Shown piece by piece: positions 1,541-62,073 of a stretch of DNA of 64,000 nt (its first letter is position 1; each line of letters starts with the position of its first letter). This DNA comes from Candidatus Pacearchaeota archaeon (GTDB lineage: Archaea > Nanobdellota > Nanobdellia > Pacearchaeales > GW2011-AR1): contig JAGLGM010000003.1 in NCBI GenBank assembly GCA_023144035.1, positions 15,876 through 79,875 of the forward strand, given 5' to 3'. A model generated the notes under the pieces. That model saw only the letters and a list, made by a program, of their open reading frames with translations. It made no database searches and was not told the origin of the DNA. Both the position numbers and the translations under genes were made by a program.

Positions 1541-1747
1541 ATGGACATAAAACAAATAAAAAAATATGAAAATAAAAAAGTAAGAGTATTTCTTAATACT
1601 AACGATTATACTTATATTCTTGATAGTTTACAAATTATTGACGATGAAGTAGAAGGATTTGATATTAAAAATAGGAAGATAACATTATCTCCTGAAATAA
1701 TTATAGGGATTATTCCATTATCGGGAATAAGCGATGGTCAACACTGA
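1541..1747 (+). CDS. Hypothetical protein (element)
   Basis: ORF track. Overlaps Rep start by 14 nt. N-terminus (KQIKKY) echoes the N-terminus of the next ORF (EQIKKY). Confidence 0.4.
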   Translation: MDIKQIKKYENKKVRVFLNTNDYTYILDSLQIIDDEVEGFDIKNRKITLSPEIIIGIIPLSGISDGQH

Positions 1748-3320: not shown

Positions 3321-3535
3321 TATAATATGTCTATATTATATATATTTATTATTTTATTTATATTTTATATATAATTAGAATCAAACATATAGAGAATCTA
3401 TATAATATAGGCAATGTGTTGGCGCAAAAAACAATCTAATAGGTGGTTAAAACGCAGAAATTCAACTAAAAACTAAAAATATATTTTAATATATTTATAT
3501 AAATAAAAAGGGAATAGAGTATTTAAATTTTTAAA

Positions 3536-3772
3536 ATGGAAGAAAAAAAGAAAATATCGACAACATTCGCGAGAATTGGAAGTATGGGTAAATCAAAAAT
3601 AATTACAATCCCAAAATCTATAAAAGATATGAATGCAGGGGACGAAGTTTTAATTATCAAAATGAATATGGAATTAATTGACTATCTTAAAAAATTAGTT
3701 GAAAAAGATTTTGTCAAACATAATATAAAACTTGAGTGGATTGATTATTTAAGGCGAAAAAGATTTAGTTAA
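3536..3772 (+). CDS. AbrB/SpoVT/MazE-type swapped-hairpin DNA-binding protein
   Basis: RIGSMGKSKIITIPKSIKDMNAGDEVLI motif. Confidence 0.5.
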   Translation: MEEKKKISTTFARIGSMGKSKIITIPKSIKDMNAGDEVLIIKMNMELIDYLKKLVEKDFVKHNIKLEWIDYLRRKRFS

Positions 3773-4329
3773 TACCCAACAGCTTCCACACCATATTCGG
3801 CTTGCTCTCTTGTAAACCCCCCATATTCTAATTGTTCAATTAATCCCTCTCGTGAAAATGGCATAATATCTAAATAAGATTGAGCCGTTAATGTAGCTTG
3901 TTCATTCCAATCAGCCCCACAATTATCTACTCCATATAATGCTTGTTCATGAGTGTATCCCTCATATTCTAATTGTTCAATTAATCCATTATAAGAGAAA
4001 GACATAACGTTCAGATAAGATAATGCACTGTCCAATGCATTCTTTTCACCTATTGTTGTTTCATCAGATTCTTTTACAGCTGGTGTTGTTGTTTGTGTTG
4101 GTGTTGTTGTTTGAGTATTTGAATTATCTGTTGATACAAGATTTTCTGAATTATAATTATCTGAAATTGTATTGGTCTCTTGGGTTTCCTCTTCAAAAGT
4201 CTTCACAACATTAGCAGTTTGAGAAAATGAATCAGATATAACATTGACTACACCCAAAAACATGAAACCTACAATTACCCAAAACCACCATTTTTGATAG
4301 AAGGTTTTATCCTTTTTTTGTTTTTCCAT
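3769..4329 (-). CDS. Ltp-family (prophage superinfection-exclusion lipoprotein-like) membrane protein with two Ltp repeats
   Basis: N-terminal TM helix, Thr/Pro-rich linker (TQTTTPTQTTTP), then two repeats: SALSYLNVMSFSYNGLIEQLEYEGYTHEQALYGVDNCGADWNEQA and AQSYLDIMPFSREGLIEQLEYGGFTREQAEYGVEA. Confidence 0.6.
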   Translation of the reverse strand: MEKQKKDKTFYQKWWFWVIVGFMFLGVVNVISDSFSQTANVVKTFEEETQETNTISDNYNSENLVSTDNSNTQTTTPTQTTTPAVKESDETTIGEKNALDSALSYLNVMSFSYNGLIEQLEYEGYTHEQALYGVDNCGADWNEQATLTAQSYLDIMPFSREGLIEQLEYGGFTREQAEYGVEAVGY

Positions 4330-4330
4330 T

Positions 4331-4882
4331 TTAATAATAATTTACCTCAATTTCATCTTCTCCATATCCTGTAATAATGCAATCAGATATTTTTTTATCA
4401 GATTCTTTAATATAAATTTCTATAATGGCTTTAGTTAATTCATAATCTTCTAATCCATTTTCATTTACTTCAACATCTTCTACTTTTTCCCCTTCTTCAT
4501 CTTTTACTGTAAATTCCATTTCATTCCATTCTTCAACTAAATTGTTAAAATCTTCTGACGCAGTATCATTAAAACCTAATGAAGCCACCCCACACATTAT
4601 CTCAGTCATTAATTCAGTCGCATCTCCAAAAAAATCATTATAAATTATTTCTTCTTCAAAATAAAGTCTCATATCCAGTGAAACTTCTTTTGTTAATGAA
4701 TTTTTAGTAAGGATCACTGTACTATTTTCATCCGAGTATTCTATAATTTCTATGTTAGATTTATTTGATTGTTTATTAAACAAGAAAAAAGATAAAACTA
4801 TAATCAAAATAATAACTGCAACTCCTCCTATGATTAAACTTTTATTTTTTATATTTAATTTAGATGTCATTAATTGCCCCAA
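4331..4882 (-). CDS. Membrane-anchored hypothetical protein (N-terminal TM, acidic C-terminal domain)
   Basis: ORF track; hydrophobic segment IIGGVAVIILIIVLSFFLF. Confidence 0.45.
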   Translation of the reverse strand: MGQLMTSKLNIKNKSLIIGGVAVIILIIVLSFFLFNKQSNKSNIEIIEYSDENSTVILTKNSLTKEVSLDMRLYFEEEIIYNDFFGDATELMTEIMCGVASLGFNDTASEDFNNLVEEWNEMEFTVKDEEGEKVEDVEVNENGLEDYELTKAIIEIYIKESDKKISDCIITGYGEDEIEVNYY

Positions 4883-5631
4883 TTCTTAATCAAACCTTTA
4901 GGAAGATTTTCAATAAAAGTAACAATTTTATCAACAATAGATTCGAGCCAAGAAGTTCTATTTTCTAATTCTACATTTTGTTCTTCTAATTCTTCAACTT
5001 TTTGTTCAAGTTCAGCAACTCTTAATTCTAATTCGTTTGGTTGTGGAGGTTCTTCAGATTCTTCTTGTTCTGTGCAAATTATAAAATTATCATAATCCAT
5101 ATGACCTATTCCATTATGACCAAAAACTGTACCAATATAAACTTCATGTTCAACATTATTATTTATTGTATGTGTAGTTACTTCATTAAATGTGATTTGT
5201 CCTTCTCCAAATTCTATTTTATTATGATATTTTTCAAAAGGACGACAAACTCCATCCCAACATCCTCCTAATCCAAATCGGTATTGATTATCCACTAAGA
5301 ACATATTCACTGAATTTCCTTCTGCATAAATAAAATTAATATCATATTCCAACATATCTCCTGCTTTGAATTTATATTTTGGGACTAAATATGTTCTATG
5401 GTCTCCGAGAATTGAATCCTGTCTTGTATGAAAATTTTCTAAATCAGCATCTAATCCAGAATCAGCTATAAATGGTTGTCCTTCATAATCTTTCCTAATT
5501 TCCCATTTACTTGTATCTAAAGTATCAGATGAAAAATCATCATAAACTTCACAAACTTGCACAGCACTAATTAAACTAATCAATAAAATTGGTAGAATTA
5601 AAGTTAATACAATTTTGCTCTGTTTTCTCAT
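4870..5631 (-). CDS. Secreted hypothetical protein with signal peptide and C-terminal coiled coil
   Basis: N-terminal signal KIVLTLILPILLISLISA; heptad-like ELELRVAELEQKVEELEEQNVELENR. Confidence 0.45.
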   Translation of the reverse strand: MRKQSKIVLTLILPILLISLISAVQVCEVYDDFSSDTLDTSKWEIRKDYEGQPFIADSGLDADLENFHTRQDSILGDHRTYLVPKYKFKAGDMLEYDINFIYAEGNSVNMFLVDNQYRFGLGGCWDGVCRPFEKYHNKIEFGEGQITFNEVTTHTINNNVEHEVYIGTVFGHNGIGHMDYDNFIICTEQEESEEPPQPNELELRVAELEQKVEELEEQNVELENRTSWLESIVDKIVTFIENLPKGLIKNWGN

Positions 5632-5703
5632 GTATTTATATTTTATTTAGATTATTTAAATCTTTTTATCTGTTACGCTTCTGTCACTCTTTCTTTTTAA
5701 GAA

Positions 5704-5943
5704 TTGTTACGCTATTGTTTCATGAAAAAAGAGTTAAAATTGGAGATATTCTTAAAGAAAAGTGAATTAAGAAGAAATGTTTGGAAACAATTAGATAAAT
5801 CAAAAACTGCTTCTGAAATTTCTAACGAAGTAGATAAGCATAGAAGTGCTGTAAGCAGAGTTCTTTTAGACATGCAAAAAGCAGGATTTGTGAAATGTAT
5901 TAATCCAGAAGATAAGAGTTTCAGGTGTTATGTGAAGAGATAG
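5704..5943 (+). CDS. Winged-helix transcription regulator (ArsR/MarR-like); start may be the internal MKKELK
   Basis: TASEISNEVDKHRSAVSRVLLDMQKAGFV HTH. Confidence 0.5.
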   Translation: MLRYCFMKKELKLEIFLKKSELRRNVWKQLDKSKTASEISNEVDKHRSAVSRVLLDMQKAGFVKCINPEDKSFRCYVKR

Positions 5944-6135
5944 AAAAATTACAAATAATAGAGCTTTTATTTTGTTATAATTTTCCCTCTATAAAAACAC
6001 CAAAAAACAGGCAAATACTTGATATAACGAGAGAAAAAGAGGTTACCTATACTATTTATCAACTAAGAGAAGTTGTTATGTTTTTAGAGTTGTTATATAA
6101 TTATAAAAATTGTACTTTAATAGTTATTTTAGAAA

Positions 6136-6495
6136 ATGGCAAATGAAACTAAGGCAATTAAAAATATAAAAGTAACAAAAAGGGAATGGAATAATGTTGG
6201 AAACCTTATTGATTTCTTAAAATTTAGATATAAAAAGGAAGATGATTTTGTTAAATGGTTAATAGGAATCGCTTTAGTATTTTTATTTTCTTCTAGTGTG
6301 ACAAATGTTCTAGAGAGTCAAACAGATTGGATTAGAACCACTGGAGTTGTTATTTTTATTGCTTCTATAGTATTTATTGTTCTATTACTTATTATTCAAC
6401 ATTATATTGATAAAGCTCAAATAGAAGTTATGAAATATCTCTACAAACAAAAAGATAAAAAGAAAAAGGTAAAAGGAAAAACTAAGAAGAAATAG
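6136..6495 (+). CDS. Small membrane protein with Lys-rich tail
   Basis: Two hydrophobic helices, KKKKVKGKTKKK tail. Confidence 0.4.
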   Translation: MANETKAIKNIKVTKREWNNVGNLIDFLKFRYKKEDDFVKWLIGIALVFLFSSSVTNVLESQTDWIRTTGVVIFIASIVFIVLLLIIQHYIDKAQIEVMKYLYKQKDKKKKVKGKTKKK

Positions 6496-6709
6496 AAAAT
6501 TAATGACCTATTGGGCCCCTGAATATTTCTTTAAACATTAATATCAAAAAAGTTAATAATATTGCCGAAAAAATTATCTCAAACCATTTTCTCTTTATAA
6601 ATTTTAAAAACTTATTCATAAAGATTCTACGAATTTATTATATTTAAATATGGGCGTTTCTAAAAAGAAAAGTATAAAATTGTTGGATTCTTAATTATCT
6701 TGATTAAAA

Positions 6710-7726
6710 ATGCCTAGTTTTGAAGAAATATTTGGATTAGCAACATATTTGAAAGAAATAGAAAATTTAAAAATTAATTTAAGAGTTAATTTTAATGGAG
6801 TATTATTAACTGCTTTGTATTTTAAAAATAAGTCTGAAGAAAAAGAAAGAAAAGATAAATTTTTTAATAGAAATAAAGAGATAATTGAAGAAATAAATAA
6901 AGAGATAAATAAATTTAATTTAAAATTAAAGGAAAAATACAAGTTTTTGCCTCTAAAGTCTCTTGAAATAATTAATCTTGAATATATTAAAAAAATAATT
7001 TATGAACATCAAGGAAAAGATTCAACTTCAAGAAAATACACTCTTCTCCAACTAAATAATTGTTTATTAGATTTTGAAAATTCGATTAAGAATTTTCTTG
7101 ACTCCTTTGAAATCCAATTGATACCATTTAAAGGGAGAGACGTTACAGATTTTCTTAATGAAGAAAATGGAATAATGGTAAAAGAAGCTTTTGATATTTA
7201 TAGTATTGGATATTTCGGAACTGCTGTTTTCTTAATGGGAAAATGTCTTGAAAAAAACATCACAGATTTTCTTAAAAAGAATGTTAATAAAAATAAAATA
7301 AAATATCCTTTAAATGAAATTGAGAAATGTACTTTCCATCAAAAAATAAACATCTTAAAAAATGAAACTTTTATTTCTGAATCAGATTATTCTAAGATTA
7401 TGTCTATCAAATGGGAGAGAAATATTGCAGTTCATCCTTCTAAAAAAGAAGAAATAGAAAAATTGATGGCAGATTCTAGTGGGACAATAACTCTCTGTAT
7501 TAATCAGATTATTAATTTCCAAAAGAAAATAGAAGAAGTGAAAAGTGAGGCTGAAATCCAAGAAGAAAAAGCAAGAGAATTGCTTGGGGGAACGTCGGGA
7601 GGAGGAATTCCAATATTATATGGAAAAACTCCAGAAGAAAATTTAGAATTGCTTAAAAGCTATGGTGGGAAAAGAATAGAAGAAATGAGGGAAAAATTAA
7701 GAAAAGAAATTGAAGAAACAAAATAA
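6710..7726 (+). CDS. Hypothetical protein with HEPN-like Rx4H motif (possible RNase / abortive-infection-type)
   Basis: KWERNIAVHP (R-x4-H) in the C-terminal half; coiled-coil-rich; adjacent to integrase. Confidence 0.4.
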   Translation: MPSFEEIFGLATYLKEIENLKINLRVNFNGVLLTALYFKNKSEEKERKDKFFNRNKEIIEEINKEINKFNLKLKEKYKFLPLKSLEIINLEYIKKIIYEHQGKDSTSRKYTLLQLNNCLLDFENSIKNFLDSFEIQLIPFKGRDVTDFLNEENGIMVKEAFDIYSIGYFGTAVFLMGKCLEKNITDFLKKNVNKNKIKYPLNEIEKCTFHQKINILKNETFISESDYSKIMSIKWERNIAVHPSKKEEIEKLMADSSGTITLCINQIINFQKKIEEVKSEAEIQEEKARELLGGTSGGGIPILYGKTPEENLELLKSYGGKRIEEMREKLRKEIEETK

Positions 7727-7739
7727 AAAATAAATTTGT

Positions 7740-8900
7740 TTATACCCCTAACTGACTTTCAATACTCTCTAAGATTTCACCTTCTTCTGTGATTTCAAAG
7801 ACTTCTGGATTTTCCTTCATTCTTCTATGTAATTTTTCATTAAACTTTATAATATCTCTTATTTTTTCTTCAAACCTTTTCTCCATATCTTCCATCTTGA
7901 TTTCTAACTCATGCTTTTTTTCTTCCGAGATTTCTTCAACATGATACACTTGTGATAAAACTGCATCACGCATATCATCATTATCTATATGAGTGTATCT
8001 TGCACCAATATTTGAATTTGGTGAATGTCCTGAAAACTTTTTTGCTAATGGGTTCGAAATTGTCTTATACATTTGAGTTAACTTTGTATGTCTAAATAGA
8101 TAAGGAAATATCGGTTTAGTTATTCCTGCTTTCTTTCCAAGTTCTTTAAAATACATAGACATGCCTGAACTACTAACTGGCTTACTTCTATTTCTTGGAG
8201 TCGGAAAGATAAAATCATTGTCTGAAACATTGGGAAAAGGAAACTCTTGTTTATATCTCTTCAAATGAATTATAGATTCATTCAAAGGAATTGTTCTTCC
8301 TCTACTTGTTTTAGAACTAAATAAAGACATTTCTTTACTTTCAAGATTTATAGAACTCCATTTTGCTGTTCTAACTTCTTCTGTTCTTGCCCCAGTTTCA
8401 GAAAGTAGACTAATTAATGCCTTATATCTTAGTTTTTCGGCTGTTCTAATTAATAATTCAAGCTCTTCAGCAGTAACTAAACTATTTTTGTTTATTTTTC
8501 TGTCTATCTCTTCTCTCTTTTTCTTAATATCTATTAGTTCTTTAAATCTTGATGACCAATCGTCATAATGAAACTTCAAAAACCTCTTTAGAACCTTCTT
8601 AATATCGTTTTGAGTAGGCACAGATATTGAAGAATTGTTAAGAATTACTAAAAATTCTCTCAAATCTTTTAATTCCAGATTGTAAAGAGATTTTTCCATA
8701 ACATCATAAATTTGATACATTTTCCTTTCAATCATATCAAGAGCGTGTGAACAAGCTGACATGCCACAATAATCTACAAAAGATTCTATAGTTTCTTTAT
8801 CTTTATCAGACATAGATTTACCAATTGTCTCTTTCAGAGTTATAATCTTACCATTAACTCTTCTCTTTTTTAAGTTATAATTTGGAAATTCTTTTTTCAT
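7740..8900 (-). CDS. Tyrosine recombinase / phage-type integrase
   Basis: LLSETGARTEEV (Arg box I), FRHT (box II), GHSPNSNIGARYTHI (catalytic Tyr region). Confidence 0.8.
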   Translation of the reverse strand: MKKEFPNYNLKKRRVNGKIITLKETIGKSMSDKDKETIESFVDYCGMSACSHALDMIERKMYQIYDVMEKSLYNLELKDLREFLVILNNSSISVPTQNDIKKVLKRFLKFHYDDWSSRFKELIDIKKKREEIDRKINKNSLVTAEELELLIRTAEKLRYKALISLLSETGARTEEVRTAKWSSINLESKEMSLFSSKTSRGRTIPLNESIIHLKRYKQEFPFPNVSDNDFIFPTPRNRSKPVSSSGMSMYFKELGKKAGITKPIFPYLFRHTKLTQMYKTISNPLAKKFSGHSPNSNIGARYTHIDNDDMRDAVLSQVYHVEEISEEKKHELEIKMEDMEKRFEEKIRDIIKFNEKLHRRMKENPEVFEITEEGEILESIESQLGV

Positions 8901-29003: not shown

Positions 29004-29171
29004 ATAAAAATCGTTATTTTTTAAGATTATAAAGATAATTATGCTGAAGAATAATTTTATAAAGCAAATTCCTCTAAATTAATCATGGCTCTGTAGCTTC
29101 CCAAGGGATGACTTACATTTTATGTAAGCCTCAGCCTCTAAGTTGCTTCGCACTCGCCATAAACAAAATAC

Positions 29172-29264
29172 GGCTCCGTAGCTCAGCCTGGCAGAGCACT
29201 GGACTTTTAGTTGGTAAAACAAGAAGTTATCCAGGTGTCGAGGGTTCAAATCCCCCCGGGGCCA
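29172..29264 (+). tRNA. tRNA-Lys (anticodon TTT at 29206-29208) with 19-nt intron (about 29210/11 to 29228/29)
   Basis: Acceptor ggctccg/cggggcc, discriminator A, D-arm gctc-agcctggca-gagc, anticodon stem ctgga/tccag, loop cTTTTag, T-arm gaggg-ttcaaat-ccccc (one A-C mismatch). Intron aagaagt pairs with actttt. Confidence 0.7.
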
Positions 29265-29319
29265 TTTTTCTAAACAAAAATCTATTAAAGGAATTTTCAC
29301 CCCAAGGGGTTTCCCAATA

Positions 29320-29391
29320 GGATGACTCTGGTGAGCCTTCCACAAAGGATGACTCTGGTGAGCCTTCCTCACAGGATGACTCTGGTGAGCC
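29320..29391. repeat. 27-nt tandem repeat, 2.7 copies (ggatgactctggtgagccttcc-caca-)
   Basis: ggat starts at 29320, 29347, 29374; copies differ only in the last about 6 nt. Confidence 0.7.
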
Positions 29392-29413
29392 TCAAATCCC
29401 CCCGGGGCCATTT
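29392..29413. repeat. 22-bp exact duplicate of the tRNA-Lys 3' end (tcaaatccccccggggccattt), att-like scar
   Basis: Identical to 29246-29267. Confidence 0.7.
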
Positions 29414-29528
29414 ATCAATTAATAAGGAATTAACAGAAAGATTTAAAAACTAAATTTAAGTATCTTTTATTATTATAAAGTTGTTAAATTGTTAGGTAAA
29501 ACTATGCAATTTCACTTAAAAATCCCTC

Positions 29529-39213: not shown

Positions 39214-41394
39214 ATGGCAACAGAAGAAGATTTTGTAAAATTAATGAAAGAACAAGACAAAATTAGAAATATAGCAATTGCTGCACATATTGATCATGGT
39301 AAAACTACTTTCTCTGATAATTTGCTTTTAGGAGCAGGAATGATGTCACAAGAAGAAGCTGGAAAAGCTTTGAAACTTGATTTTCACGAGGATGAATCTT
39401 CAAGAGGAATTACTATTGATTCTGCATCTGTAAGTATGATTCATAATGTTGGTGGAGAAGATCATTTAATTAATTTAATTGATACGCCAGGGCATGTTGA
39501 TTTTGGTGGAGATGTTACAAGAGCTATGAGGGCTGTTGATGGTTGTATTGTTTTATCATGTGCTGTAGAAGGTGTAATGCCTCAAACAGAAACAGTTTTA
39601 AGACAAGCTTTAAAAGAATTAGTAAAACCTGTTTTATTCATAAATAAAGTTGACAGATTAATCAAAGAAGTTAAACTAACTCCTCAAGAAATGGAAAAAA
39701 AATTCCTTTCTATTATTGAACATATTAATGAATTAATTGAAAACATTGCTCCTGAAGGATATAAAGAAAAATGGAAAGTAGGTGTTGGAGAAGGAAGTGT
39801 TGCTTTTGGTTCTGCATTTCATAATTGGGCTTTGAGTTTCCCATATATGAAGAAAAAAGGATTAACTTTCAAAGATATAATTGATGCTTACAGTGAAGAA
39901 GATGAAAATAAACTAAAACAAAATATTAAAGAATTAGCTGAAAAAGCACCATTACATGAAGTTGTTTTAGAGATGAGTGTTAAACATCATCCAAATCCTG
40001 TTGATGCTCAAAAATATAGAATCCCTAAACTATGGCATGGAGAACATGATTCTGAAGTTGGAAAATCATTAATAAATTGTAATCCTAACGGACCTCCTGT
40101 TTTTATGCCTATTAAAATTGTAGTTGATAAACATGCAGGTGAAGTTGCTGCAGGAAGATTATTTTCAGGAACTATAAAACAAGGTGACGAAGTTTATATG
40201 AATCTTGCAAAAAGAAATGTTAGAGCACAGCAAGTTTCTGTTTACAAAGGTGCACAAAGAATGATTGTTAATGAAGTTAGTGCTGGAAATATTGTTGGAA
40301 TTGTTGGATTAAAAGATACTTTTGCAGGTGAAACAGTTAGTAAAGAACCAATGGAACCTTTAGAAGCAATTAAACATTTGTTTGATCCTGTTGTTACAAA
40401 ATCAATTGAAGCTAAAAAAGCAGCTGACCTTCCTAGATTAGTTGAAGTCTTAAAACAAGTTGGAAAAGAAGACCCTTCTATTAAAATTGAAATTAATGAA
40501 CAAACAGGAGAAAGTTTAATGTCTGGTATGGGAGAATTACACTTAGAAATTATAGAAAATAGAATTAAAACTGAAAAAGGTTTAGATGTTAAAACTTCTG
40601 CTCCTATTATTGTATATAGAGAAACAGTTACAAAAGCTTCTGAAACAAAAGAAGGAAGAAGTCCAAATAAACATAATAGTTTCTATATTAAACTTGAACC
40701 TTTAGAAGATAATATTTATGAAGCAATTAGAAGCGGAGTTTTGCCAGAAGGAAGAGTAAAGAAAAAAAGTACTGCTGTTGCAGAAGTTTTATCAGGACTA
40801 GGTTGGAGTGGAGATCAAATTAGAAATGTTAGAAATGTTTACAAAGGAAATGTTTTCTTAGATGAAACACGAGGAGAAGTTCATATTGGGGAAGTTATTG
40901 AAATGGTTTTAGATGCTTTTGAAATGGTTATGGATGCTGGTCCTTTAGCACGTGAACCATGTATGAAAGTAAAAGCTTCATTAATGGATATTAGACTTCA
41001 CGAAGATGCTATTCACAGAGGTCCTGCACAAGTTTATCCTGCTGTAAGAGAAGGTGTAACAGAAGCTATTAAAACTGCTGGTGCTGCTCTTTTTGAACCA
41101 TTACAAGTTCATGTTATTGAAGCTCCTGATAAATTTACAGGAGTAATGACAAAATTAGTTGGAAGTAAAAGAGGACAAATGATTGATATGTCACAAGAAG
41201 GAACACTTTCAAAAGTAAAGGCAAAGATTCCTGTGGCTGAAATGCTTGGATGGTCAAATGATCTTAGGTCTGCAACAGAAGGTAGAGGAACATCTTCAAT
41301 CTTAGAACAAGATTTTGAAAGAATTCCAACAAATCTACAAGCAACTGTTATAAAGAAAATAAGAGATAGAAAAGGTTTAGCTGTTAATCAGTAA
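39214..41394 (+). CDS. fusA: Translation elongation factor 2 (aEF-2)
   Basis: AHIDHGKTT, DTPGHVDF, NKVDR G-motifs; diphthamide-region HRGPAQ. Confidence 0.95.
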   Translation: MATEEDFVKLMKEQDKIRNIAIAAHIDHGKTTFSDNLLLGAGMMSQEEAGKALKLDFHEDESSRGITIDSASVSMIHNVGGEDHLINLIDTPGHVDFGGDVTRAMRAVDGCIVLSCAVEGVMPQTETVLRQALKELVKPVLFINKVDRLIKEVKLTPQEMEKKFLSIIEHINELIENIAPEGYKEKWKVGVGEGSVAFGSAFHNWALSFPYMKKKGLTFKDIIDAYSEEDENKLKQNIKELAEKAPLHEVVLEMSVKHHPNPVDAQKYRIPKLWHGEHDSEVGKSLINCNPNGPPVFMPIKIVVDKHAGEVAAGRLFSGTIKQGDEVYMNLAKRNVRAQQVSVYKGAQRMIVNEVSAGNIVGIVGLKDTFAGETVSKEPMEPLEAIKHLFDPVVTKSIEAKKAADLPRLVEVLKQVGKEDPSIKIEINEQTGESLMSGMGELHLEIIENRIKTEKGLDVKTSAPIIVYRETVTKASETKEGRSPNKHNSFYIKLEPLEDNIYEAIRSGVLPEGRVKKKSTAVAEVLSGLGWSGDQIRNVRNVYKGNVFLDETRGEVHIGEVIEMVLDAFEMVMDAGPLAREPCMKVKASLMDIRLHEDAIHRGPAQVYPAVREGVTEAIKTAGAALFEPLQVHVIEAPDKFTGVMTKLVGSKRGQMIDMSQEGTLSKVKAKIPVAEMLGWSNDLRSATEGRGTSSILEQDFERIPTNLQATVIKKIRDRKGLAVNQ

Positions 41395-42304
41395 ATCCAA
41401 AGCTTTCTAAATTATCTTTTAATGTTTTAATTAAAAAAGGAAAAATTAATGAATAATCTTCATCATTTGATTTTCTTACTGCCTTTAAATATTGTTGACG
41501 TTGTTTTTTATAGATATTAATCCAAGGATAATCTTTTTTATTTAATAAAAAGTTCATAATAAGTCGTGAAACCCTTCCATTACCATCAATAAAAGGATGA
41601 ATTGTAACAAATTTCAGAGATACTAAAGTTGCTAATTCTAATGAGTGATATTTTGTTTTATTTTTTTTATACCAATAAACTAAATTCTTAATTAATTGAG
41701 GAACTTTTTCTGAAGTAGGAAATCTAACATTGCTTCCAAAAATTTTAACTTGTGTTTCTCTATATCTTCCTGCAAATCTTTCAGATATTTCTTTTAAAAT
41801 AATTAAATGTAATTTTAAAATAAAATTCTCACTAAAATCTCCTTTATAATTTTTAATAAATTCTAATGCTTTTATGTGGTTTTTTGCTTCATAAATTTCT
41901 CTTAATGTTTTTCCTTCAGGTGAAAGATTCTCATTTACTACTAATGAAGTTTCTTCTAAAGATAAAGAATTACCTTCAATTGCGTTACTATTATAAGTTA
42001 ATTCAGTAAAGAAAGAATTTTCAAGTCTTTCGAATTCTTCTTGGTTTAATTTTTTTATTTTCTCATTAAAAACTTTCTTATTTTTTTCTATCTCTTTTAT
42101 CTGTTCTTTAGTTAAGAAGAGATACTTTTTTTCTGTAATTAATTCTTCTTCAAATTTTTCTTTTAATTCTGAAACTTTGCTTTTTGATATATTTCCTACC
42201 CCTATAAACTTGCTTTTTTTTGACCATTTATTTTTTTCCCTTCTATTATAAATAAGATAATTCTTTTTATTCCCTTTAATATTTCTTATTTCATGATATA
42301 CCAT
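41384..42304 (-). CDS. Fic-family protein (AMPylator type) with intrinsic inhibitory motif
   Basis: HPFIDGNGRVSRL Fic motif; SNAIEGN matches the (S/T)xxxE(G/N) inhibitory helix; convergent with fusA, overlapping by 11 nt. Confidence 0.8.
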   Translation of the reverse strand: MVYHEIRNIKGNKKNYLIYNRREKNKWSKKSKFIGVGNISKSKVSELKEKFEEELITEKKYLFLTKEQIKEIEKNKKVFNEKIKKLNQEEFERLENSFFTELTYNSNAIEGNSLSLEETSLVVNENLSPEGKTLREIYEAKNHIKALEFIKNYKGDFSENFILKLHLIILKEISERFAGRYRETQVKIFGSNVRFPTSEKVPQLIKNLVYWYKKNKTKYHSLELATLVSLKFVTIHPFIDGNGRVSRLIMNFLLNKKDYPWINIYKKQRQQYLKAVRKSNDEDYSLIFPFLIKTLKDNLESFGFTD

Positions 42305-48100: not shown

Positions 48101-49126
48101 TTAATTAGAATATCTCCCAATCACAGTCAAATTATAACACAAAGATTTTAATAACATTTCATTATCCTTTGCTGTGTCGGTTTTTGTTCGCAACCAATTA
48201 GTAAGTTTCTTTTTCATAACTGAAAAAACAGATTCAACTAAAACCCTATAACGATACGATTCATGCCAAATTTCCTCTTCATTTTTATACAGATGGAAAG
48301 CATCACTCCATGCTTTACTCTTTGGATGTTTACCTGTTATATTTGATTTGAAATCAATAAAAACTTCCTTTATTCCAAGTTCCTGACATAAAGAATAATT
48401 ATCTTTGCTTAAATAACCTGCATCAGCGAGACATTTTTCGATAAGAAAACCATTTTTACAAACATTAGAAACAATCTCATTAAACATAGGACAATCATGT
48501 TGAGTTCCATGAGTTGGAATAGCATAAGCAATTATTTTGCTGTTTGTTAAACAACCAATATGTAACTTTTTAGTTTTGGTTAATGAGGGGGCAGAAGGAT
48601 TAGATTTTGGTTTATTTGAATAACCCCCAACATACATTTTAAGTCCGAACCAAGTTGAGTCTATAGCCAAAGTATTTTCCTGATTAAGAAAAGGCATAGC
48701 AGAAATTTGTATTAATTTGCTTAACTTTTTTGTTAAGGTCTTGTCATTCATATATTTACTTAAAGTGCTTCGTTTGGGTATTGATGAAATTACACCTAAA
48801 CTTTTTGCTAAAAGTAAGTCTGATTGAACTCTACGATAAGAAAGACCATTCAAAGATAGGATTAATAATGATTTGAAAATATCATTTAAATTGAATCTTG
48901 GTCTTCCTTCATATTGAGGCATGTTCAAAACAGCATTATCAATAAATTCAGAGCAAATTTTTAGAAATCTTGCTCTTTCAGTTTCAAGGTAATTTTCTTG
49001 TTTTTTAAGCACAGGAAGTGTAGTAGTCATTGTCATTTTATATATATTTAGACTGAATATTATTAAATAATAATGATATAAAGGTATATAAATGTATCTA
49101 TTTTTGATAATATATAGTCTGAACAT
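48101..49126 (-). CDS. DDE transposase (IS4/IS5-like, DDE_Tnp_1 type); true start probably internal (MTMTTTLPVL…)
   Basis: LAIDSTWF (D), CLADAGYLSKDN (D), YRYRVLVESVFSVMKKKL (E, Y-R-E-K). Confidence 0.65.
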   Translation of the reverse strand: MFRLYIIKNRYIYIPLYHYYLIIFSLNIYKMTMTTTLPVLKKQENYLETERARFLKICSEFIDNAVLNMPQYEGRPRFNLNDIFKSLLILSLNGLSYRRVQSDLLLAKSLGVISSIPKRSTLSKYMNDKTLTKKLSKLIQISAMPFLNQENTLAIDSTWFGLKMYVGGYSNKPKSNPSAPSLTKTKKLHIGCLTNSKIIAYAIPTHGTQHDCPMFNEIVSNVCKNGFLIEKCLADAGYLSKDNYSLCQELGIKEVFIDFKSNITGKHPKSKAWSDAFHLYKNEEEIWHESYRYRVLVESVFSVMKKKLTNWLRTKTDTAKDNEMLLKSLCYNLTVIGRYSN

Positions 49127-54276: not shown

Positions 54277-54885
54277 TCAAACAAATGGGACAAATATAAA
54301 GCCTTTTTTAGATCTCTTTATCTTAAAACCACCTCTTTTTCTTTCTATAATAACTAAATTTTGATTATATCTTGGACCAACAGGAGCTACAATTAATCCT
54401 TTATCTTTTAATTGAGATAAAACCTTTTTAGGAATAATTTCACAAGCAGCACTTATTAATATTTTATCAAATGGTGCTTTTTCTTTAAGTCCTTGCTTTC
54501 CATCTTTATTATAAACTTTTATATTTTTGTAATTTTTAGTATTTTCTTTTGATTTTTCTGCTAATTCAGGTATAATCTCTATCCCATAGATTTTTCCTTT
54601 CTTGCCTACAATTTCAGATATTAGAGCTAAAACATAACCACTTCCAGAACCAAGTTCTAGAACTTTTTGACCTAATTTTAAATCTAACATCTCTAACATA
54701 ACTGCTATTGTATATGGTTGAGAAATTGTCTGTGCTTTTCCTATTGAAAGAGGTGCATCTTCATATGCTCTATCTTTTAATTGATTTGAAATAAAATTCT
54801 CTCTTTTAACTTTTGAAAAAGCATCTAAGATATTCTCTGGGAAATTCTCTTGTTTTAGATGTTCTATAAGTTGGGGTTTGTTCAT
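54277..54885 (-). CDS. pcm: Protein-L-isoaspartate O-methyltransferase
   Basis: SQPYTIAVMLEML, VLELGSGSGY. Confidence 0.85.
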   Translation of the reverse strand: MNKPQLIEHLKQENFPENILDAFSKVKRENFISNQLKDRAYEDAPLSIGKAQTISQPYTIAVMLEMLDLKLGQKVLELGSGSGYVLALISEIVGKKGKIYGIEIIPELAEKSKENTKNYKNIKVYNKDGKQGLKEKAPFDKILISAACEIIPKKVLSQLKDKGLIVAPVGPRYNQNLVIIERKRGGFKIKRSKKGFIFVPFV

Positions 54886-55158
54886 TTTAAATCTTTAAAC
54901 TAATTATTTTCATTGCAAATTTTTATCTTTTGAAACATTTATTACACTCCAAATATTCTATTTGTTTTTCTTTTCTATTCCACTTAACCACATTAACTTT
55001 TTTTACCTAACAAATTTGTCTTTCCTACTTTAATATATCTTCCTTTGCCAATTGGAAATTTCATCTTTCCAAAATAATTTGCTCCAACATAGGTTTTATC
55101 TTTATTTAATTTTATTTTAAGATTCTCTCCACAAATTACACAATCTCTTTTAATAACA

Positions 55159-55539
55159 TTATTCAATATCTAAACTTATTTTAATTGCCAAATCAACTTG
55201 AGACATCAGATAAGGATTTAGCTTTGAAATTCTTTTTTTAATCATAGATTTATCAACTGTTCTTAATTGATTTAATAAAATATTTGAATCTAATTTGAGT
55301 TTTGAATCTTTTTTAGATAAAAAAACATTTGTGGGAAAGTTTTTTGTAAAATTTCTTGAAGTTATGGCAGCAACAATTATCACAGGACTATATTTATTAT
55401 AAAGATTATTTTGTATAACAATGGCTGGTCGAATCCCTCCTTGCTCTGAGCCTCTAACTGGTTCAAAATCAACAATAACTATGTCTCCTCTAGAGATCAC
55501 CTTCCCACTCCCACTTCGAAAGATCTTCCATTGCTTCAA
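55159..55539 (-). CDS. mazF: MazF/PemK-family endoribonuclease toxin
   Basis: GDIVIVDFEPVRGSEQGGIRPAIVIQNN. Confidence 0.75.
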   Translation of the reverse strand: MKQWKIFRSGSGKVISRGDIVIVDFEPVRGSEQGGIRPAIVIQNNLYNKYSPVIIVAAITSRNFTKNFPTNVFLSKKDSKLKLDSNILLNQLRTVDKSMIKKRISKLNPYLMSQVDLAIKISLDIE

Positions 55540-55750: not shown

Positions 55751-55823
55751 CTATAGTATATAAATTTTTAGTTTGAAAATTAAATCTTTAAACTAATTAC
55801 TTTACTAATACCATCATGCATTA

Positions 55824-55942
55824 TGCGAAATATGGTTTATGAGCATTCGTGAAACGATTCTGAAAGAACTATGCGAAGCGACTATGTCTGCGAGCATCCT
55901 ATGAAATAGGTGCATGAAACAATTATATTTTAAGACTTATAA
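55824..55942. other. 119-bp relatively GC-rich insert with internal ~50-nt tandem duplication, flanked by a ~45-bp imperfect duplication of the SMC gene 3' end
   Basis: ttt(t)actaataccatcatgcatt at 55943-55965 (codes the SMC C-terminus) and again at 55802-55823. Between them tatgcgaa…gagcattc and tatgcgaa…gagcatcc units. Confidence 0.4.
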
Positions 55943-58796
55943 TTTTACTAATACCATCATGCATTGAGACTCCATAAAGATTTGTTGCGTTTGATATTAC
56001 CTCATCATTGTGTGTAATTACAATATATTGTCCTTTTTTCATATATTTTTGGAGAAGATTTGCTAAACGTTCTGAGTTTCTTTTATCTAATGCTGCGTCA
56101 ATTTCATCAAGAATATAAAAACAATAAGGATTTAATTCTTGAATTGCGAAAATTAATGACAAAGCTACTAACACTTGCTCCCCTCCTGAAAGAGACCTAA
56201 CATCAAAGTATTTTCCATGACCTGTTTTAACAATTATATTAACCCCTCCATCAAAAGGATCTTTTCTATTTTCTAAATCTAATGAAACTTGTCCTTTTGT
56301 GCTTAATAAAGTAAAATTGCTTGAAAACTTTTCATTTAATTCATCTAATGTTTTCAAAAAAACCTTTTTCTTTTTAATATCTATTTCATGAATTATTTTT
56401 AAAATTCCTTCTTTTTCTTTTGTAATAATTTCTGATTTATCTCTAACAGAATCATATTCTCTTTTTACAGAATCATAAACTTCCAAAGAACGCATATTAA
56501 TAGATCCTATTCTAGCCAACATGTCTTGTGTTTTTACTAATCTTTCTACAAGATTCTCTCTTTTTGATTTTATAACTTGAATATTTTTAAATTCTAATAA
56601 TTCTGTTTCGTGATTTTCAACAATCGCGTCTACTCTTGCTTTATCAATTTTAAAATTGTTTATATCTTGTTCAATATTATAAATAATATTTTTTTTATCT
56701 GATAATTCATATTCATTTTCTCTTATCTTTTTCTGAAAATTATCTTTTTCTGAAATTAATTGTTGAAACTTTTTACTTAATTCTTCTTCTTGTTTATTTT
56801 TTTTCTCGAGAATTTTTTCTTTTTCATCTATAACATTTTGAACTGCTTTTATTTCTTCATGTAAATCTTCTTGTTCCCTTAATAATTGCTTTAAGGATAT
56901 TTTTGACCTATCTAATTCTCTTTGTTTAAAAGATATTTCAGAATCAACATCTTCCTCGTTTCTTAAAGAAATTTCTTGAACTTCTACTCTTGTAGTTTCA
57001 TATTTTTGCTCAATATTTTGATTATCTTCAAAATTCCTTTCAAGCCTCTTTTTTATTTTATCTAATTCTGTAAACTCTTCTTTTGTCTTTTGAACTCTTT
57101 CTTGAATTTCTTTAAGTTGTTGTTTCTTTTCTCCTATATTTAAAAGTTTCATTAAATCAGATTCTCTTTTTGAGATTTCAGAAGTTAGTTGATCTATATC
57201 TTGTTTTATTAAATCTTTTTTATTATGAATATTTACTAATTCTTTATCTGATTTTTCAATATCTAAATTTAAATTATTTAACCTTGGTAAAGTGTCTTGA
57301 TTTATTTCATGAACATGTGCTTCTGTTATTTTGCTCTTACATATTGGACAAACATCCATTTTAGAAATATTTTCAATTAATTTGTTTTCTTTGTCAATTT
57401 CATTTTCATTTGCAGAAGATATTCTTTCTAATTCTATTTCTCTTTTATTTATAGAATCTAAAATTTCTTTTCTTTGTGCTAAAGATAATCTTAGAGATTC
57501 TACTTTTGTTTTATTAGTATTTTTATCAAATAATTCTTCATAAAGAATTTTCATTTGTCTTAATAAAAATTCAGATTCATTTTCATAATTCTTAAGGAGA
57601 GATGTTTTATCTTGAAATCTTTCTTTAATTGATTTTAATTCAGATTTAGCCATATAAAATTTTTTTCTTTGTTCTTCTAATTTTTCTAATTCTTGTTTTT
57701 TTAATTCAACTTCTTTATCTTTAAGTGTTTTTTTAGAGCTTGAACTTTTTGATACAGTTTTTTTTAAATCTTGAATATACTCTTCGGTTTCTTTAATAGT
57801 TTCTTCAAATTCTTGTTTTTGTTTTAATAGAACTGAATGTTTACTTCCATAATTCTCAGACCTTACACTTAATCCTGCAAGTTCTGCCCTAATATTTGCA
57901 ATTTCTTGATTAAGTTTTTCTTGTTCTAATCCAGTTGATTCTTGAATAGTTTTATTTATGTAATTAATTTTTGATTCAAAATTTTCTATATTTGTTCTTA
58001 AAATTATTATTGACTTCTTAATTTTATCAATTTCTTTATTCTTTTTAGCAATCTCTTCATTTATCTTTTCTATTTCTTTTTTATTTTTATTTATATCATA
58101 TGAAATTACACTTGCTTTCAATATCTTCACATCTTTCTCAAGTTTCTTAAATCTTAATGCTTGTTGCCTTTCTTTTTCTAAATTATTTAAATAAGCTGTC
58201 CTTTCTCTTAATATTGCTGCAACTTCTTTTAGTTTTTCCTCAGTTTTATTTAATTCTTTTAGTGATTTTTCTTTTCTTGATTCATAAATAGATATTCCTG
58301 AAACTTCTTCAAGTATCTTTCTTCTATCATCAGGATACATTCTTACAAAATTTTGAATTTCGCCTTGAAGAATTATATTAAAACCATTAGGATCAATTCC
58401 TGCTTGAGCAAGTAATCCTAAAACTTGCTGTCTTGTTTTTGTTTCATTATTTATCTTGTAAATGCTTTGCCCATTTTTTCTGACTATTCTTTTTATAGAA
58501 ACTTCATTTTTATCTATTGAAAAAGTTCTATTAGAATTATCAAAAACCATTTCAACACTTGCTTCTTTTGCAGGACTAGCTGCTTTTGTTCCTAAGAATA
58601 TTAAATTCCTTGCTTTTGCTGCTCTCATAGATTTTATACTTAATCTTCCTAAAACAAAACAAAGAGCGTCTGAGACATTTGATTTTCCGCTTCCATTTGG
58701 ACCTAAGATTACATTTATACCCTCTGTAAAAGGTATTTCTGTTTTTCTTGGAAAACTTTTAAATCCATGCATCACCAGTTTTTTTATATGAGCCAT
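55923..58796 (-). CDS. SMC-family ATPase with SMC-type heads and a central Rad50-like CPxC zinc-hook motif in place of a hinge (957 aa)
   Basis: N-terminal GPNGSGKSNVSDALCFVLG; C-terminal LSGGEQVLVALSLIFAI…LDEIDAALD; mid-protein MDVCPICKSKITEAHVHEI inside coiled coil. Confidence 0.8.
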   Translation of the reverse strand: MAHIKKLVMHGFKSFPRKTEIPFTEGINVILGPNGSGKSNVSDALCFVLGRLSIKSMRAAKARNLIFLGTKAASPAKEASVEMVFDNSNRTFSIDKNEVSIKRIVRKNGQSIYKINNETKTRQQVLGLLAQAGIDPNGFNIILQGEIQNFVRMYPDDRRKILEEVSGISIYESRKEKSLKELNKTEEKLKEVAAILRERTAYLNNLEKERQQALRFKKLEKDVKILKASVISYDINKNKKEIEKINEEIAKKNKEIDKIKKSIIILRTNIENFESKINYINKTIQESTGLEQEKLNQEIANIRAELAGLSVRSENYGSKHSVLLKQKQEFEETIKETEEYIQDLKKTVSKSSSSKKTLKDKEVELKKQELEKLEEQRKKFYMAKSELKSIKERFQDKTSLLKNYENESEFLLRQMKILYEELFDKNTNKTKVESLRLSLAQRKEILDSINKREIELERISSANENEIDKENKLIENISKMDVCPICKSKITEAHVHEINQDTLPRLNNLNLDIEKSDKELVNIHNKKDLIKQDIDQLTSEISKRESDLMKLLNIGEKKQQLKEIQERVQKTKEEFTELDKIKKRLERNFEDNQNIEQKYETTRVEVQEISLRNEEDVDSEISFKQRELDRSKISLKQLLREQEDLHEEIKAVQNVIDEKEKILEKKNKQEEELSKKFQQLISEKDNFQKKIRENEYELSDKKNIIYNIEQDINNFKIDKARVDAIVENHETELLEFKNIQVIKSKRENLVERLVKTQDMLARIGSINMRSLEVYDSVKREYDSVRDKSEIITKEKEGILKIIHEIDIKKKKVFLKTLDELNEKFSSNFTLLSTKGQVSLDLENRKDPFDGGVNIIVKTGHGKYFDVRSLSGGEQVLVALSLIFAIQELNPYCFYILDEIDAALDKRNSERLANLLQKYMKKGQYIVITHNDEVISNATNLYGVSMHDGISKIISLKI

Positions 58797-61641: not shown

Positions 61642-61772
61642 AGCGAGGTGGAGCAGTCTGGAGTGCTCGTCGGGCCCATAAGTAAATCCTTGCAGGATTT
61701 TTCATTCCTGCATAATCTTAGGATTATACGAGGAAACCCGGAGGTCGCGTGGTTCAAATCCCGCCCTCGCTA
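61642..61772 (+). tRNA. Initiator-type tRNA-Met (anticodon CAT at 61677-61679) with about 55-nt intron (61682-61736)
   Basis: A1:T72 acceptor agcgagg/cctcgct, discriminator A, D-arm gagc-agtctggagt-gctc, anticodon stem tcggg/cccgg (three G-C), loop ccCATaa, T-arm gcg[t]gg-ttcaaat-cccgc (single-nt bulge). Confidence 0.55.
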
Positions 61773-61921
61773 TTATATTCTTGCAAAATTTGAACAATTC
61801 CTTATTCAGCCATTGAAAAGCTTTTATTAATAATCTTTAAAATTATACTTCTCAATAAATTCACCCTCTCAAACTTTCTTAATAATTAACCTTAAATACT
61901 ATTAATTTATTCTATAATTAT

Positions 61922-62073
61922 GCCCAGATCGCATAGTGGTTATTGCACCGGATTGCTAAGCACAGGACACCTCAACGGTTTCCTACCGCACTACCTTCCC
62001 TTAATGGATTGTAGAAGTTAACGCAAAGATCCGGACCCTTCGGGGTGCGTAGGTTCGACTCCTACTCTGGGCG
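61922..62073 (+). tRNA. tRNA-Ser (anticodon GCT at 61955-61957) with about 70-nt intron (61960-62029) and long variable arm
   Basis: Acceptor gcccaga/tctgggc, discriminator G, D-loop with GG, anticodon stem ccgga/tccgg, loop ttGCTaa, variable arm acccttcggggtgc, T-arm gtagg-ttcgact-cctac. Intron 3' end gcaa pairs with ttgc (BHB-like). Confidence 0.65.
61964..62004 (+). other. Second copy of the 41-nt element, inside the tRNA-Ser intron
   Basis: See 32997-33037. Confidence 0.5.

Follow-up and report, generated by a model that had tools for sequence, protein, structure and literature searches.

The 64,000-nucleotide stretch of DNA analysed here (hereafter the window) comes from a Candidatus Pacearchaeota archaeon (contig JAGLGM010000003.1) and is part of a 142-kb metagenome scaffold. 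Its minus strand carries an SMC gene whose 3' end, or tail, is present three times. Read along that strand, the locus is made up of the SMC gene with its working tail (copy A), a short insert (X), a second tail (copy B), a mazEF-like gene pair followed by a zinc-ribbon open reading frame (ORF), a third and partial tail (copy C), and the gene for PCMT. DNA has been inserted at the end of SMC, the reading frame has been regenerated with a synonymous tail, and the old tail has been displaced downstream. Such insertion has been repeated and recent in several lineages, and the window itself holds a second cassette in tandem with the first. With a probability of roughly 0.6, we consider that the SMC 3' end in this DPANN lineage is an attachment-like site where small DNA cassettes recombine. 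DPANN archaea have tiny streamlined genomes; to our knowledge, few of their mobile elements have been characterised, and the gain and loss of accessory genes in these organisms is poorly understood.

The Repeated Gene End Downstream of SMC

A repeat search in the window reveals a 45-nt direct repeat (55778-55822 and 55921-55965) with 84% identity and a spacing of 143 nt. Its exact core of 22 nt occurs twice in the 64 kb, vs. 0.00 occurrences expected by chance. An initial annotation, made from the sequence alone, had reported that the last 45 nt or so of SMC recur downstream with about six substitutions. The duplication is confirmed, and the two copies differ at seven positions, six of them synonymous and one changing an amino acid. 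The distance from the SMC stop to the second ATG is 101 nt (55922-55822) and not the 119 bp previously given. The intervening DNA had rightly been described as GC-rich (GC content of 0.40, vs. 0.27 for the window and 0.25 for SMC) and as comprising two imperfect tandem units of about 50 nt (36 matches, about 70%); the number of units varies in relatives (L096, L092, and L114; see below). Copy C had been missed. It lies 893 nt beyond copy B and its stop codon is 1 nt before the PCMT start codon.

Empty and Occupied Sites in Relatives

The locus was compared with about 160 loci of Pace-, Woese-, and Nanoarchaeota, designated here by L-numbers. Part of this set consists of the best 80 genome matches to the SMC C-terminus (67-84% identity), all of them metagenome-assembled genomes (MAGs) of Pacearchaeota, Woesearchaeota, or Nanoarchaeota; 80 further loci, with 70-91% identity, came from a metagenome scan. 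PCMT lies downstream of SMC in about 40 loci, separated from it by 1 nt to about 2.5 kb. In the closest insert-free relatives, L085 (91% amino acid identity) and L087 (89%), the order is SMC-TAA-A-ATG-PCMT with nothing in between, and the same TAA-A-ATG junction is found after copy C in the window and after copy 2 in L096. Hence, the comparison of orthologous loci that the initial annotation had proposed as a check yields empty sites as well as relatives with a like architecture. L092 (87%) has a two-unit X built like that of the window and followed by a second tail, and L096 has a one-unit X with a second tail that abuts PCMT. L086 (89%) carries a cassette of mazEF and zinc-ribbon genes without X, and about 10 nt of tail are left before PCMT. 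The SMC stop of L114 is followed (3799-3994) by a tandem array of an X module, with at least four perfect 49-nt copies; the array reaches the contig end and has probably broken the assembly.

In total, X together with an intact second tail is found in 17 of the roughly 160 loci. About eight more have an X-like start with a decayed or missing second tail, decayed tails being found in L036, L029/L145, and L030. Variants of X, counted in about 20 of the 160 loci, are 28-172 nt long and in every case start no more than a few bases from the SMC stop; ATGCA is invariably the exact start of the second tail. Within the window and the 160 loci (about 1 Mb), X motifs are confined to the neighbourhood of the SMC stop. 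Insert-bearing species are scattered over the SMC tree, beside insert-free neighbours. In L043 (4904-4990), the second tail is followed by a further partial tail end and X start (GTTTAG CTTCATACAC...), which suggests nested events.

Codon History of the Tails

Over codons 5-13, 16 non-redundant tail pairs show 108 nucleotide differences and five amino-acid-changing codons, all of them K/R or I/V exchanges. Under random mutation to the same extent, 67.5 ± 3.6 amino-acid-changing codons would be expected, with a minimum of 54 in 3000 simulations. Therefore, the second tail is not a slowly decaying duplicate, and each tail has evolved as a working gene end. The picture is different for codons 2-4, where 17 codons differ and nine of these alter the amino acid, always in the downstream copy. 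This split between the head of the tail (codons 2-4) and its body fits recombination that joined host and incoming DNA between the two.

The tail that is common to insert-free relatives, called host-type, reads AAG ATA ATT AGT YTG AAG ATT TAA. It is also found in copies B and C of the window and in copy 2 of L092, L096, and L002. The insert-type tail, AAA ATT ATA AGY YTW AAA ATA TAR, is that of the working copy 1 of the window, L096, and L002; codons 8-13 of copy A are the insert-associated synonymous version, ATT ATA AGT CTT AAA ATA. In L117, the second tail corresponds to the tail of L009 at 40 of 42 bases.

The clearest case is provided by two contigs of one MAG, L052 without insert and L054 with insert. 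Upstream, they share 100% identity over 1.9 kb as far as ATGCA; beyond copy 2, the identity is 99%. Nine synonymous changes within 37 nt of tail 1, an X of 34 nt, and a changed head of tail 2 are peculiar to L054, the cassette of which measures 76 bp and looks recently acquired. Since the synonymous changes form a dense patch inside identical flanks, they represent imported DNA rather than point mutation. L054 fits a single crossover near codon 6/7, provided that the recipient head was the head of its tail 1.

Extra nucleotide-level constraint on the tail, as would be expected of the core of an attachment (att) site, was not detected over all insert-free loci, where synonymous conservation is 0.48 in the tail and 0.47 upstream. 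Among the closest relatives it is mildly raised (0.74 vs. 0.61).

One proposal of the initial annotation, that an insertion regenerated the gene end, is thus borne out by the empty junction of the closest relatives, by the host-type codons of copies B and C, and by the L052/L054 pair. Each insertion displaced the prior gene end downstream: copy A is the working end, copy B the displaced ancestral one, and copy C an older remnant fused to the PCMT start. Cassette 1 is 143 bp long and consists of the synonymous replacement tail, the 101-nt X, and a non-coding copy of the first codons of the tail. Cassette 2, of about 870 bp, contains the mazEF-like genes and the frameshifted zinc-ribbon ORF. For genome annotation, a duplicated gene end with solely synonymous differences should be taken as an insertion boundary and not as a pseudogene.

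Anatomy and Folding of the Insert

In the window, X is composed, in this order, of a spacer, an inverted repeat, a small hairpin, module alpha, a linker, and module beta (Table 1). A module related to beta is amplified at least four times in L114. The start of X is the reverse complement of the tail head (GCATGATGG / CCATCATGC), and the stem that the two can form has 6-9 Watson-Crick base pairs in 13 of the 17 insert-bearing loci, vs. about 3.7 by chance and 3-4 in insert-free loci. Where the two heads of a locus differ, the stem fits the upstream working copy (9 vs. 4 pairs in L070, 7 vs. 3 in L096). The inverted repeat also tracks variants of the head: CTTCAT goes with GAAGG in L043, and CATCTTGC goes with the partial tail in L012. 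In every class of X, a hairpin is located 3-5 nt before the second ATG, with sequences that differ between classes.

Evidence for covariation comes from an alignment of the six long-class sequences, in which 90% of the cells pair, including all inverted-repeat cells. Nine pairs have changed on both sides, vs. 3.9 ± 1.2 in shuffles (none of 500 reaches nine) and 1-5 in slid controls. The inverted-repeat stem of this class shows G-U wobbles on the sense strand. Across all classes, wobble pairs carry no signal as to which strand folds, the stem extension being 15 bp with G-U and 23 bp with A-C pairs.

With Rfam 15, solely tRNAs pass the gathering threshold in the window, the best local match being snR54 with E=6.6, and solely tRNAs are found at E<=1 in nine insert-bearing loci. 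As regards a small protein, X of the window contains a 33-aa ORF without Pfam match; the length of X varies between species and no conserved ORF was found.

Table 1. Features of the SMC locus, with positions in the window.
Feature	Position	Strand	Basis
SMC gene, 957 aa	55923..58796	-	ORF and translation; Pfam SMC_N recorded for the called gene
Tail copy A, working SMC end, last 13 codons and stop (MHDGISKIISLKI*)	55923..55964	-	Repeat search, codon comparison
Insert X, 101 nt, non-coding, 40% GC	55822..55922	-	GC content, motif searches
Inverted repeat TCATGCA at X start, complementary to TGCATGA in the SMC tail head	55911..55917	-	Watson-Crick complementarity
Small hairpin CCTA-TTTCA-TAGG (L096 equivalent CCAAC-AA-GTTGG)	55898..55910	-	
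Module alpha (ATGCTCGCAGACATAGTCGCTTCGCATAG), core of tandem unit 1	55869..55897	-	Homologous modules in L092, L096, and L030
Linker, degenerate copy of the inverted repeat and hairpin part (TCG-TTTCA-CGA)	55847..55868	-	Conserved in L092
Module beta (ATGCTCATAAACCATATTTCGCATA), core of tandem unit 2, ends at the ATG of copy B	55822..55846	-	
Tail copy B, displaced ancestral-type SMC end (MHDGISKVISLKI*)	55780..55821	-	39/42 bases identical to the functional tail of L085
Antitoxin-like gene, 81 aa	55490..55735	-	Pfam DUF7557 1.4e-5 and VAPB_antitox 3.7e-5, both just under the family cut-offs
MazF/PemK-type toxin gene, 113 aa	55159..55500	-	Pfam PemK_toxin 5.4e-33
Zinc-ribbon ORF (CxxC...CxxC), frameshifted at an A-run	54923..55166	-	Intact homologue at the same position in L086
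Tail copy C, partial ancestral SMC end (KIISLKI*)	54887..54910	-	20 bases identical to copy B vs. 0.06 expected by chance
PCMT (protein-L-isoaspartate O-methyltransferase), ancestral downstream neighbour of SMC	54277..54885	-	Pfam PCMT 1.3e-57

Several known kinds of sequence were considered for X and set aside. A miniature RNase P RNA was suggested by GAGGAAAGUC and ACAGAAA-like strings in L042 and L005; no Rfam RNase P match was obtained at E<=1 in the nine loci searched, and a P4 pairing could not be drawn by hand. For a box C/D small RNA or a kink-turn, considered for X as well as for the tRNA-Lys repeats described below, box spacing and tandem G-A geometry proved unfit on inspection, the snR54 match being the sole one to a C/D family. 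The core motifs of the hammerhead and other self-cleaving ribozymes were not seen on inspection. Removal of X by splicing of a bulge-helix-bulge (BHB) intron, or its passage by translational bypass, is unnecessary because copy A ends the ORF with its own stop; moreover, insert lengths are out of frame (distances of 70-214 nt). In minimum-free-energy folds of 16 loci a BHB motif was not seen at the junctions, no dedicated BHB search having been made. Finally, X is not a miniature inverted-repeat transposable element or a miniature transposon derived from an insertion sequence (IS): it has no dispersed copies in the window and the roughly 1 Mb of loci, and the duplication consists of 42 nt of diverged coding sequence.

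Coding Cassettes at the SMC End

Cassette 2 of the window contains a type II toxin-antitoxin system of the mazEF kind, the 81-aa gene overlapping the downstream PemK toxin gene by 11 nt. The antitoxin-like family is found directly after the SMC stop in many relatives. Between copy B and the antitoxin start lies a 58-nt spacer with a TATA-like TTTATATA motif and repeated CTATAG. The zinc-ribbon ORF is broken at an A-run (about 55005-54999), where a +1 shift reads into the second CxxC; this may reflect a pseudogene or a homopolymer sequencing error. The C-terminus of MazF (AIKISLDIE*, 55159-55190) resembles the SMC tail (ISKIISLKI*, 55923-55950) at both the protein and the DNA level, and ...TTAAAGATTTAA comes after the end of mazF in L032 and L155. 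This likeness could be due to chance, or it could be a microhomology that aids recombination.

Other coding cassettes occupy the same place in relatives, and the SMC end is thus a general hot spot of insertion. A Fic gene is bracketed by SMC tails in L023 (77-nt repeats, 97% identity), a RelE-like PBECR2 toxin pair in L016 (repeats identical at 44 of 48 positions), and a 126-aa gene followed by a ParE pair in L026. Cassettes of the mazEF type adjoin the SMC stop in more than 10 loci, and partial SMC tails are common among the loci.

Further genes were noticed near the SMC stop. L003 (4855-6177) has a gene for a 440-aa reverse transcriptase beside it. Bacterial-type sigma-70-like proteins are encoded in L143 (4520-5302) and L108 (3933-4595), region 2 being confirmed by Pfam for the L143 protein only, and L162 (2904-3737) encodes a TnpB/Cas12f-like nuclease. 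Elsewhere in the window, a Fic/DOC gene (41384-42304) downstream of bacA is 37% identical to the Fic cassette of L023; a duplication of the bacA tail was not seen there.

Proposed Mechanism and Alternative Explanations

If the SMC end is an attachment-like site, a cassette would enter by Campbell-type recombination, with the chromosomal tail as one partner and a DNA that bears a tail and is probably circular as the other. The crossover would fall inside the 42-nt tail, usually around codons 5-7, and excision would be the reverse of this reaction. Two conserved features may represent the functional ends of the cassette, namely the inverted repeat of the tail head after the new stop and the hairpin before the displaced tail. 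These hairpin ends could act as recombination signals, either in the form of folded single strands or through recognition by a trans-acting recombinase; another possibility is that they insulate the 3' end of the SMC transcript. Folded single-strand attachment sites are known in integron attC and in the attP of CTX phage.

Several results weigh against such a site. No recombinase was found in or beside the window cassette. In the 3-4 kb flanks of the relatives, the ORFs of at least 220 aa that were inspected by eye, ten of them also with Pfam, did not include a recognisable integrase. The sole tyrosine integrase of the window (7740-8900, 386 aa, Pfam Phage_integrase 2.4e-24) lies 47 kb from the SMC end, and it has no homologue in the SMC loci. 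Pattern scans of IMG/VR for a free element with an attP-like tail returned nothing, or chance matches in GC-rich phage contigs. The coding cassettes have another, longer repeat boundary (77 nt in L023, at least 48 nt in L016), so that some insertions fit homology-driven recombination better than a single fixed att core. At the level of the tails, L052 has a head unlike either head of L054, a third variant that hints at previous exchanges in this position. L015 and L106 show the opposite relation, tail 1 resembling the tail of the relative; therefore, the crossover position or the direction of loss varies. The shared insert-type codons could in part result from convergence, because an AT-rich genome uses just 2-3 codons per amino acid. 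Finally, the fold prediction on both strands that had initially been proposed as a check shows that X of the window folds no better than its shuffles (z of -0.51 and -0.01).

Going beyond the attachment-like site itself, we tentatively raise the possibility that X cassettes are previously undescribed mobile elements of DPANN archaea, miniature and non-coding, that swap gene ends. They would measure 70-215 bp, consist of a synonymous replacement for the last SMC codons and two hairpin ends, and move between genomes into a codon-precise site. They would perhaps use a folded single-strand attachment site together with a recombinase from the host or from another element, and they would seed the hot spot for toxin-antitoxin and defence genes. 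On present evidence, this fuller proposal is rather doubtful.

A scar would be the next explanation to consider, though an unlikely one. X would then be the two ends of a larger, integrase-carrying element whose interior has been lost, as in a cis-mobilizable element (CIME), with neither present function nor mobility of its own. Repeats resembling left and right attachment sites (attL and attR) without integration genes, together with tandem accretion at attR, fit the definition of a CIME (PMC5704250). X classes share both ends and differ in the middle, as would be expected of deletion derivatives; second tails have decayed in L036, L029/L145, and L030; and a parallel, remnant-like structure is found at a tRNA-Lys gene, a classical integrase target. 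The initial annotation had likewise considered a decayed integrative element, with which the locus is compatible, except that X has no integrase in it or beside it. Moreover, a full-length element with X-like ends and a recombinase was not seen in the 160 loci or in IMG/VR. X occurs across numerous diverged species, its hairpins have undergone compensatory changes, and its inverted repeat follows the head of the working tail (L070, L043, and L012), which argues for continuing selection on X. Two further points speak against a scar: the L054 cassette is just 76 bp long yet looks recent, and modules have been amplified into perfect tandem arrays in L114.

Still less likely is a conserved cis-acting structured RNA in the 3' untranslated region (UTR) of SMC, acting in transcript stability, in termination, or as a leader. 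The duplication would be ancient and vertically inherited, with a second tail kept where it is by selection, for instance because its translation as a short ORF maintains the coupling to the next gene. This explanation would account for the covarying hairpins, for the sense-strand G-U wobbles in the inverted-repeat stem of the long class, and for a second tail that starts at ATG with ORF and stop intact in 17 of 17 loci, a set that is defined by having such a tail. Furthermore, in L096, L092, and L002 the stop of the second tail is 1 nt before the next ATG, like the ancestral SMC-PCMT junction, and the strong synonymous pattern could reflect selection in place. However, the dense synonymous differences of the L052/L054 pair are confined to the tail and point to import, not to slow divergence. 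In the window, the spacer after copy B carries TTTATATA and CTATAG motifs, so that coupling is unneeded here. Codons 2-4 of the second tails gain amino acid changes, and some second tails have decayed altogether. The structured small RNA initially suggested is supported in part, by the covarying hairpins of relatives; the window copy has no thermodynamic signal beyond its shuffles, no Rfam family matches, and wobble pairs show no strand preference across classes.

A purely local origin, with the SMC end duplicated by replication slippage or unequal crossing-over and the spacer formed in place without foreign DNA, is very improbable. Direct repeats with internal tandem units are indeed products of slippage, and near-identical copies occur in L043, L105, and L012. 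Yet the spacer is unrelated to the flanks, GC-richer, and homologous across species; the copies differ at up to 33% of synonymous sites while the flanks can be identical; and neutrally diverged copies of such an age would have lost the reading frame. Lastly, an assembly artefact (which the initial annotation had named as a possible refutation, and for which the sole point is that the window comes from a metagenome assembly) or a chance repeat is refuted, because four contigs from different samples, runs, and assemblers (two assembly pipelines) carry an identical 233-nt region, because the architecture recurs in L092 and about 20 other species, and because the chance expectation is 0.00 for the repeat core and 0.06 for copy C.

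Relationships With Known Systems

The reading of the SMC end as an attachment-like site invites comparison with integrase-type elements that insert at the 3' ends of tRNA or protein genes, such as prophages, integrative and conjugative elements (ICEs), integrative and mobilizable elements (IMEs), archaeal pNOB8- and SSV-type elements, and tycheposons. In these, as here, the insertion lies between direct repeats of the 3' end of its target gene, which remains intact. The original end of the host gene survives as the displaced copy, and an empty site is found in close relatives. Successive insertions push older ones outward, and the cargo is of the toxin-antitoxin or defence type. In contrast, the 143-bp unit described here has no integrase or any other gene, its target is SMC, its repeat is 42 nt of synonymously diverged coding sequence, its boundary varies with the type of cassette, and no free form was found. 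Islands of tycheposons with scattered partial tRNAs offer another parallel.

A CIME keeps attL and attR and lacks integration and transfer genes, and a newcomer may join it in tandem at attR (PMC5704250). The SMC locus is alike in its att-like flanking repeats, in the absence of integration and transfer genes, and in the second element that lies in tandem at the distal repeat. However, CIMEs are bacterial, measure kilobases, and derive by decay from ICEs or IMEs whose integrase partners are known, whereas the present units are 70-215 bp long, belong to DPANN archaea, and have covarying hairpins, and neither a parent element nor a partner was found for them. As neither the defining recombinase nor a free form was found, the cassette is not a demonstrated member of the integrase-type, CIME, or tycheposon classes.

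Integron attC cassettes and the pdif modules of Acinetobacter may be regarded as functional analogies only. They too are tiny cassettes, often of toxin-antitoxin or single genes, which are stacked at a fixed site, delimited by repeats, and provided with a hairpin-forming inverted repeat at the boundary. They differ in that the SMC locus has neither IntI nor attI, no integrase adjoining SMC in the window or in the loci, and that the repeated site is here the end of an essential gene and not attC or dif. In addition, the present hairpin pairs the cassette with host coding sequence and is confined to the non-coding cassette. The canonical R-box motif of attC was not noticed in X, no specific search having been made. 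Inserts subject to translational bypass (gene 60 of T4 and the mitochondrial "byp" elements) are likewise short, GC-richer, and hairpin-forming, with a stop at their start and matching sequence on both sides. They differ from X, since the upstream copy is here complete with its own stop and length and frame are unconstrained (70-214 nt).

What is unusual in the present case is the SMC target, the DPANN host, and above all a tiny, non-coding, structured cassette that appears to move with its own gene end. The locus offers a concrete route for the acquisition of accessory genes, in which the end of the essential SMC gene is a reusable docking site whose last codons are brought along or regenerated, so that the gene is never broken. 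The site gathers toxin-antitoxin, Fic, reverse-transcriptase, and similar genes across many species. Its smallest arrivals are non-coding, structured, and recently exchanged in appearance; should they prove mobile, few known site-specific insertion units would be smaller.

The tRNA-Lys Locus and Other Features of the Window

The tRNAs of the window contain introns. As the initial annotation had pointed out, the architecture of the SMC end is paralleled at the locus of an intron-containing tRNA-Lys (29172-29264). The last 25 nt of this tRNA gene recur 146 nt downstream (29392-29416), and the two copies of the tRNA 3' end flank three 27-nt repeats, TTCCNNANAGGATGACTCTGGTGAGCC. Upstream of the gene (29088-29130), a 5' fragment of the tRNA is fused to a unit resembling these repeats, with the same outer stem and AUGA bulge and a different inner hairpin (CTTACAT/ATGTAAG). 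The whole region (29088-29416) looks like an att-type remnant with a structured repeat; it was rejected as one structured RNA (z = -0.76). The 8-mer GCTTCGCA is common to X and the tRNA-Lys flank (three occurrences vs. 0.13 expected), and the similarity extends no further.

Another tRNA of the window (61922-62073) has an intron of about 80 nt. Some 150 nt upstream of it (61740-61775), a sequence resembling a T-arm and the 3' half of an acceptor stem was noticed, which is not called by ARAGORN or Rfam. The region 61740-62073 could represent a split or otherwise unusual tRNA.

Two further features relate to mobile DNA. A probable integrated element (1734-8900) lies beside ribosomal-protein genes and encodes a 528-aa protein of P-loop or primase appearance, small ORFs, a DUF4145 protein (6710-7726), and the tyrosine integrase mentioned above. 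A DDE transposase gene (48101-49126; Pfam DDE_Tnp_1, 2.7e-15) presumably belongs to an IS element. Finally, a 96-nt repeat at 3785-4021 (71% identity, spacing 141 nt) lies inside one 186-aa ORF and is an in-frame internal duplication of a protein segment, unrelated to the events at the SMC end.

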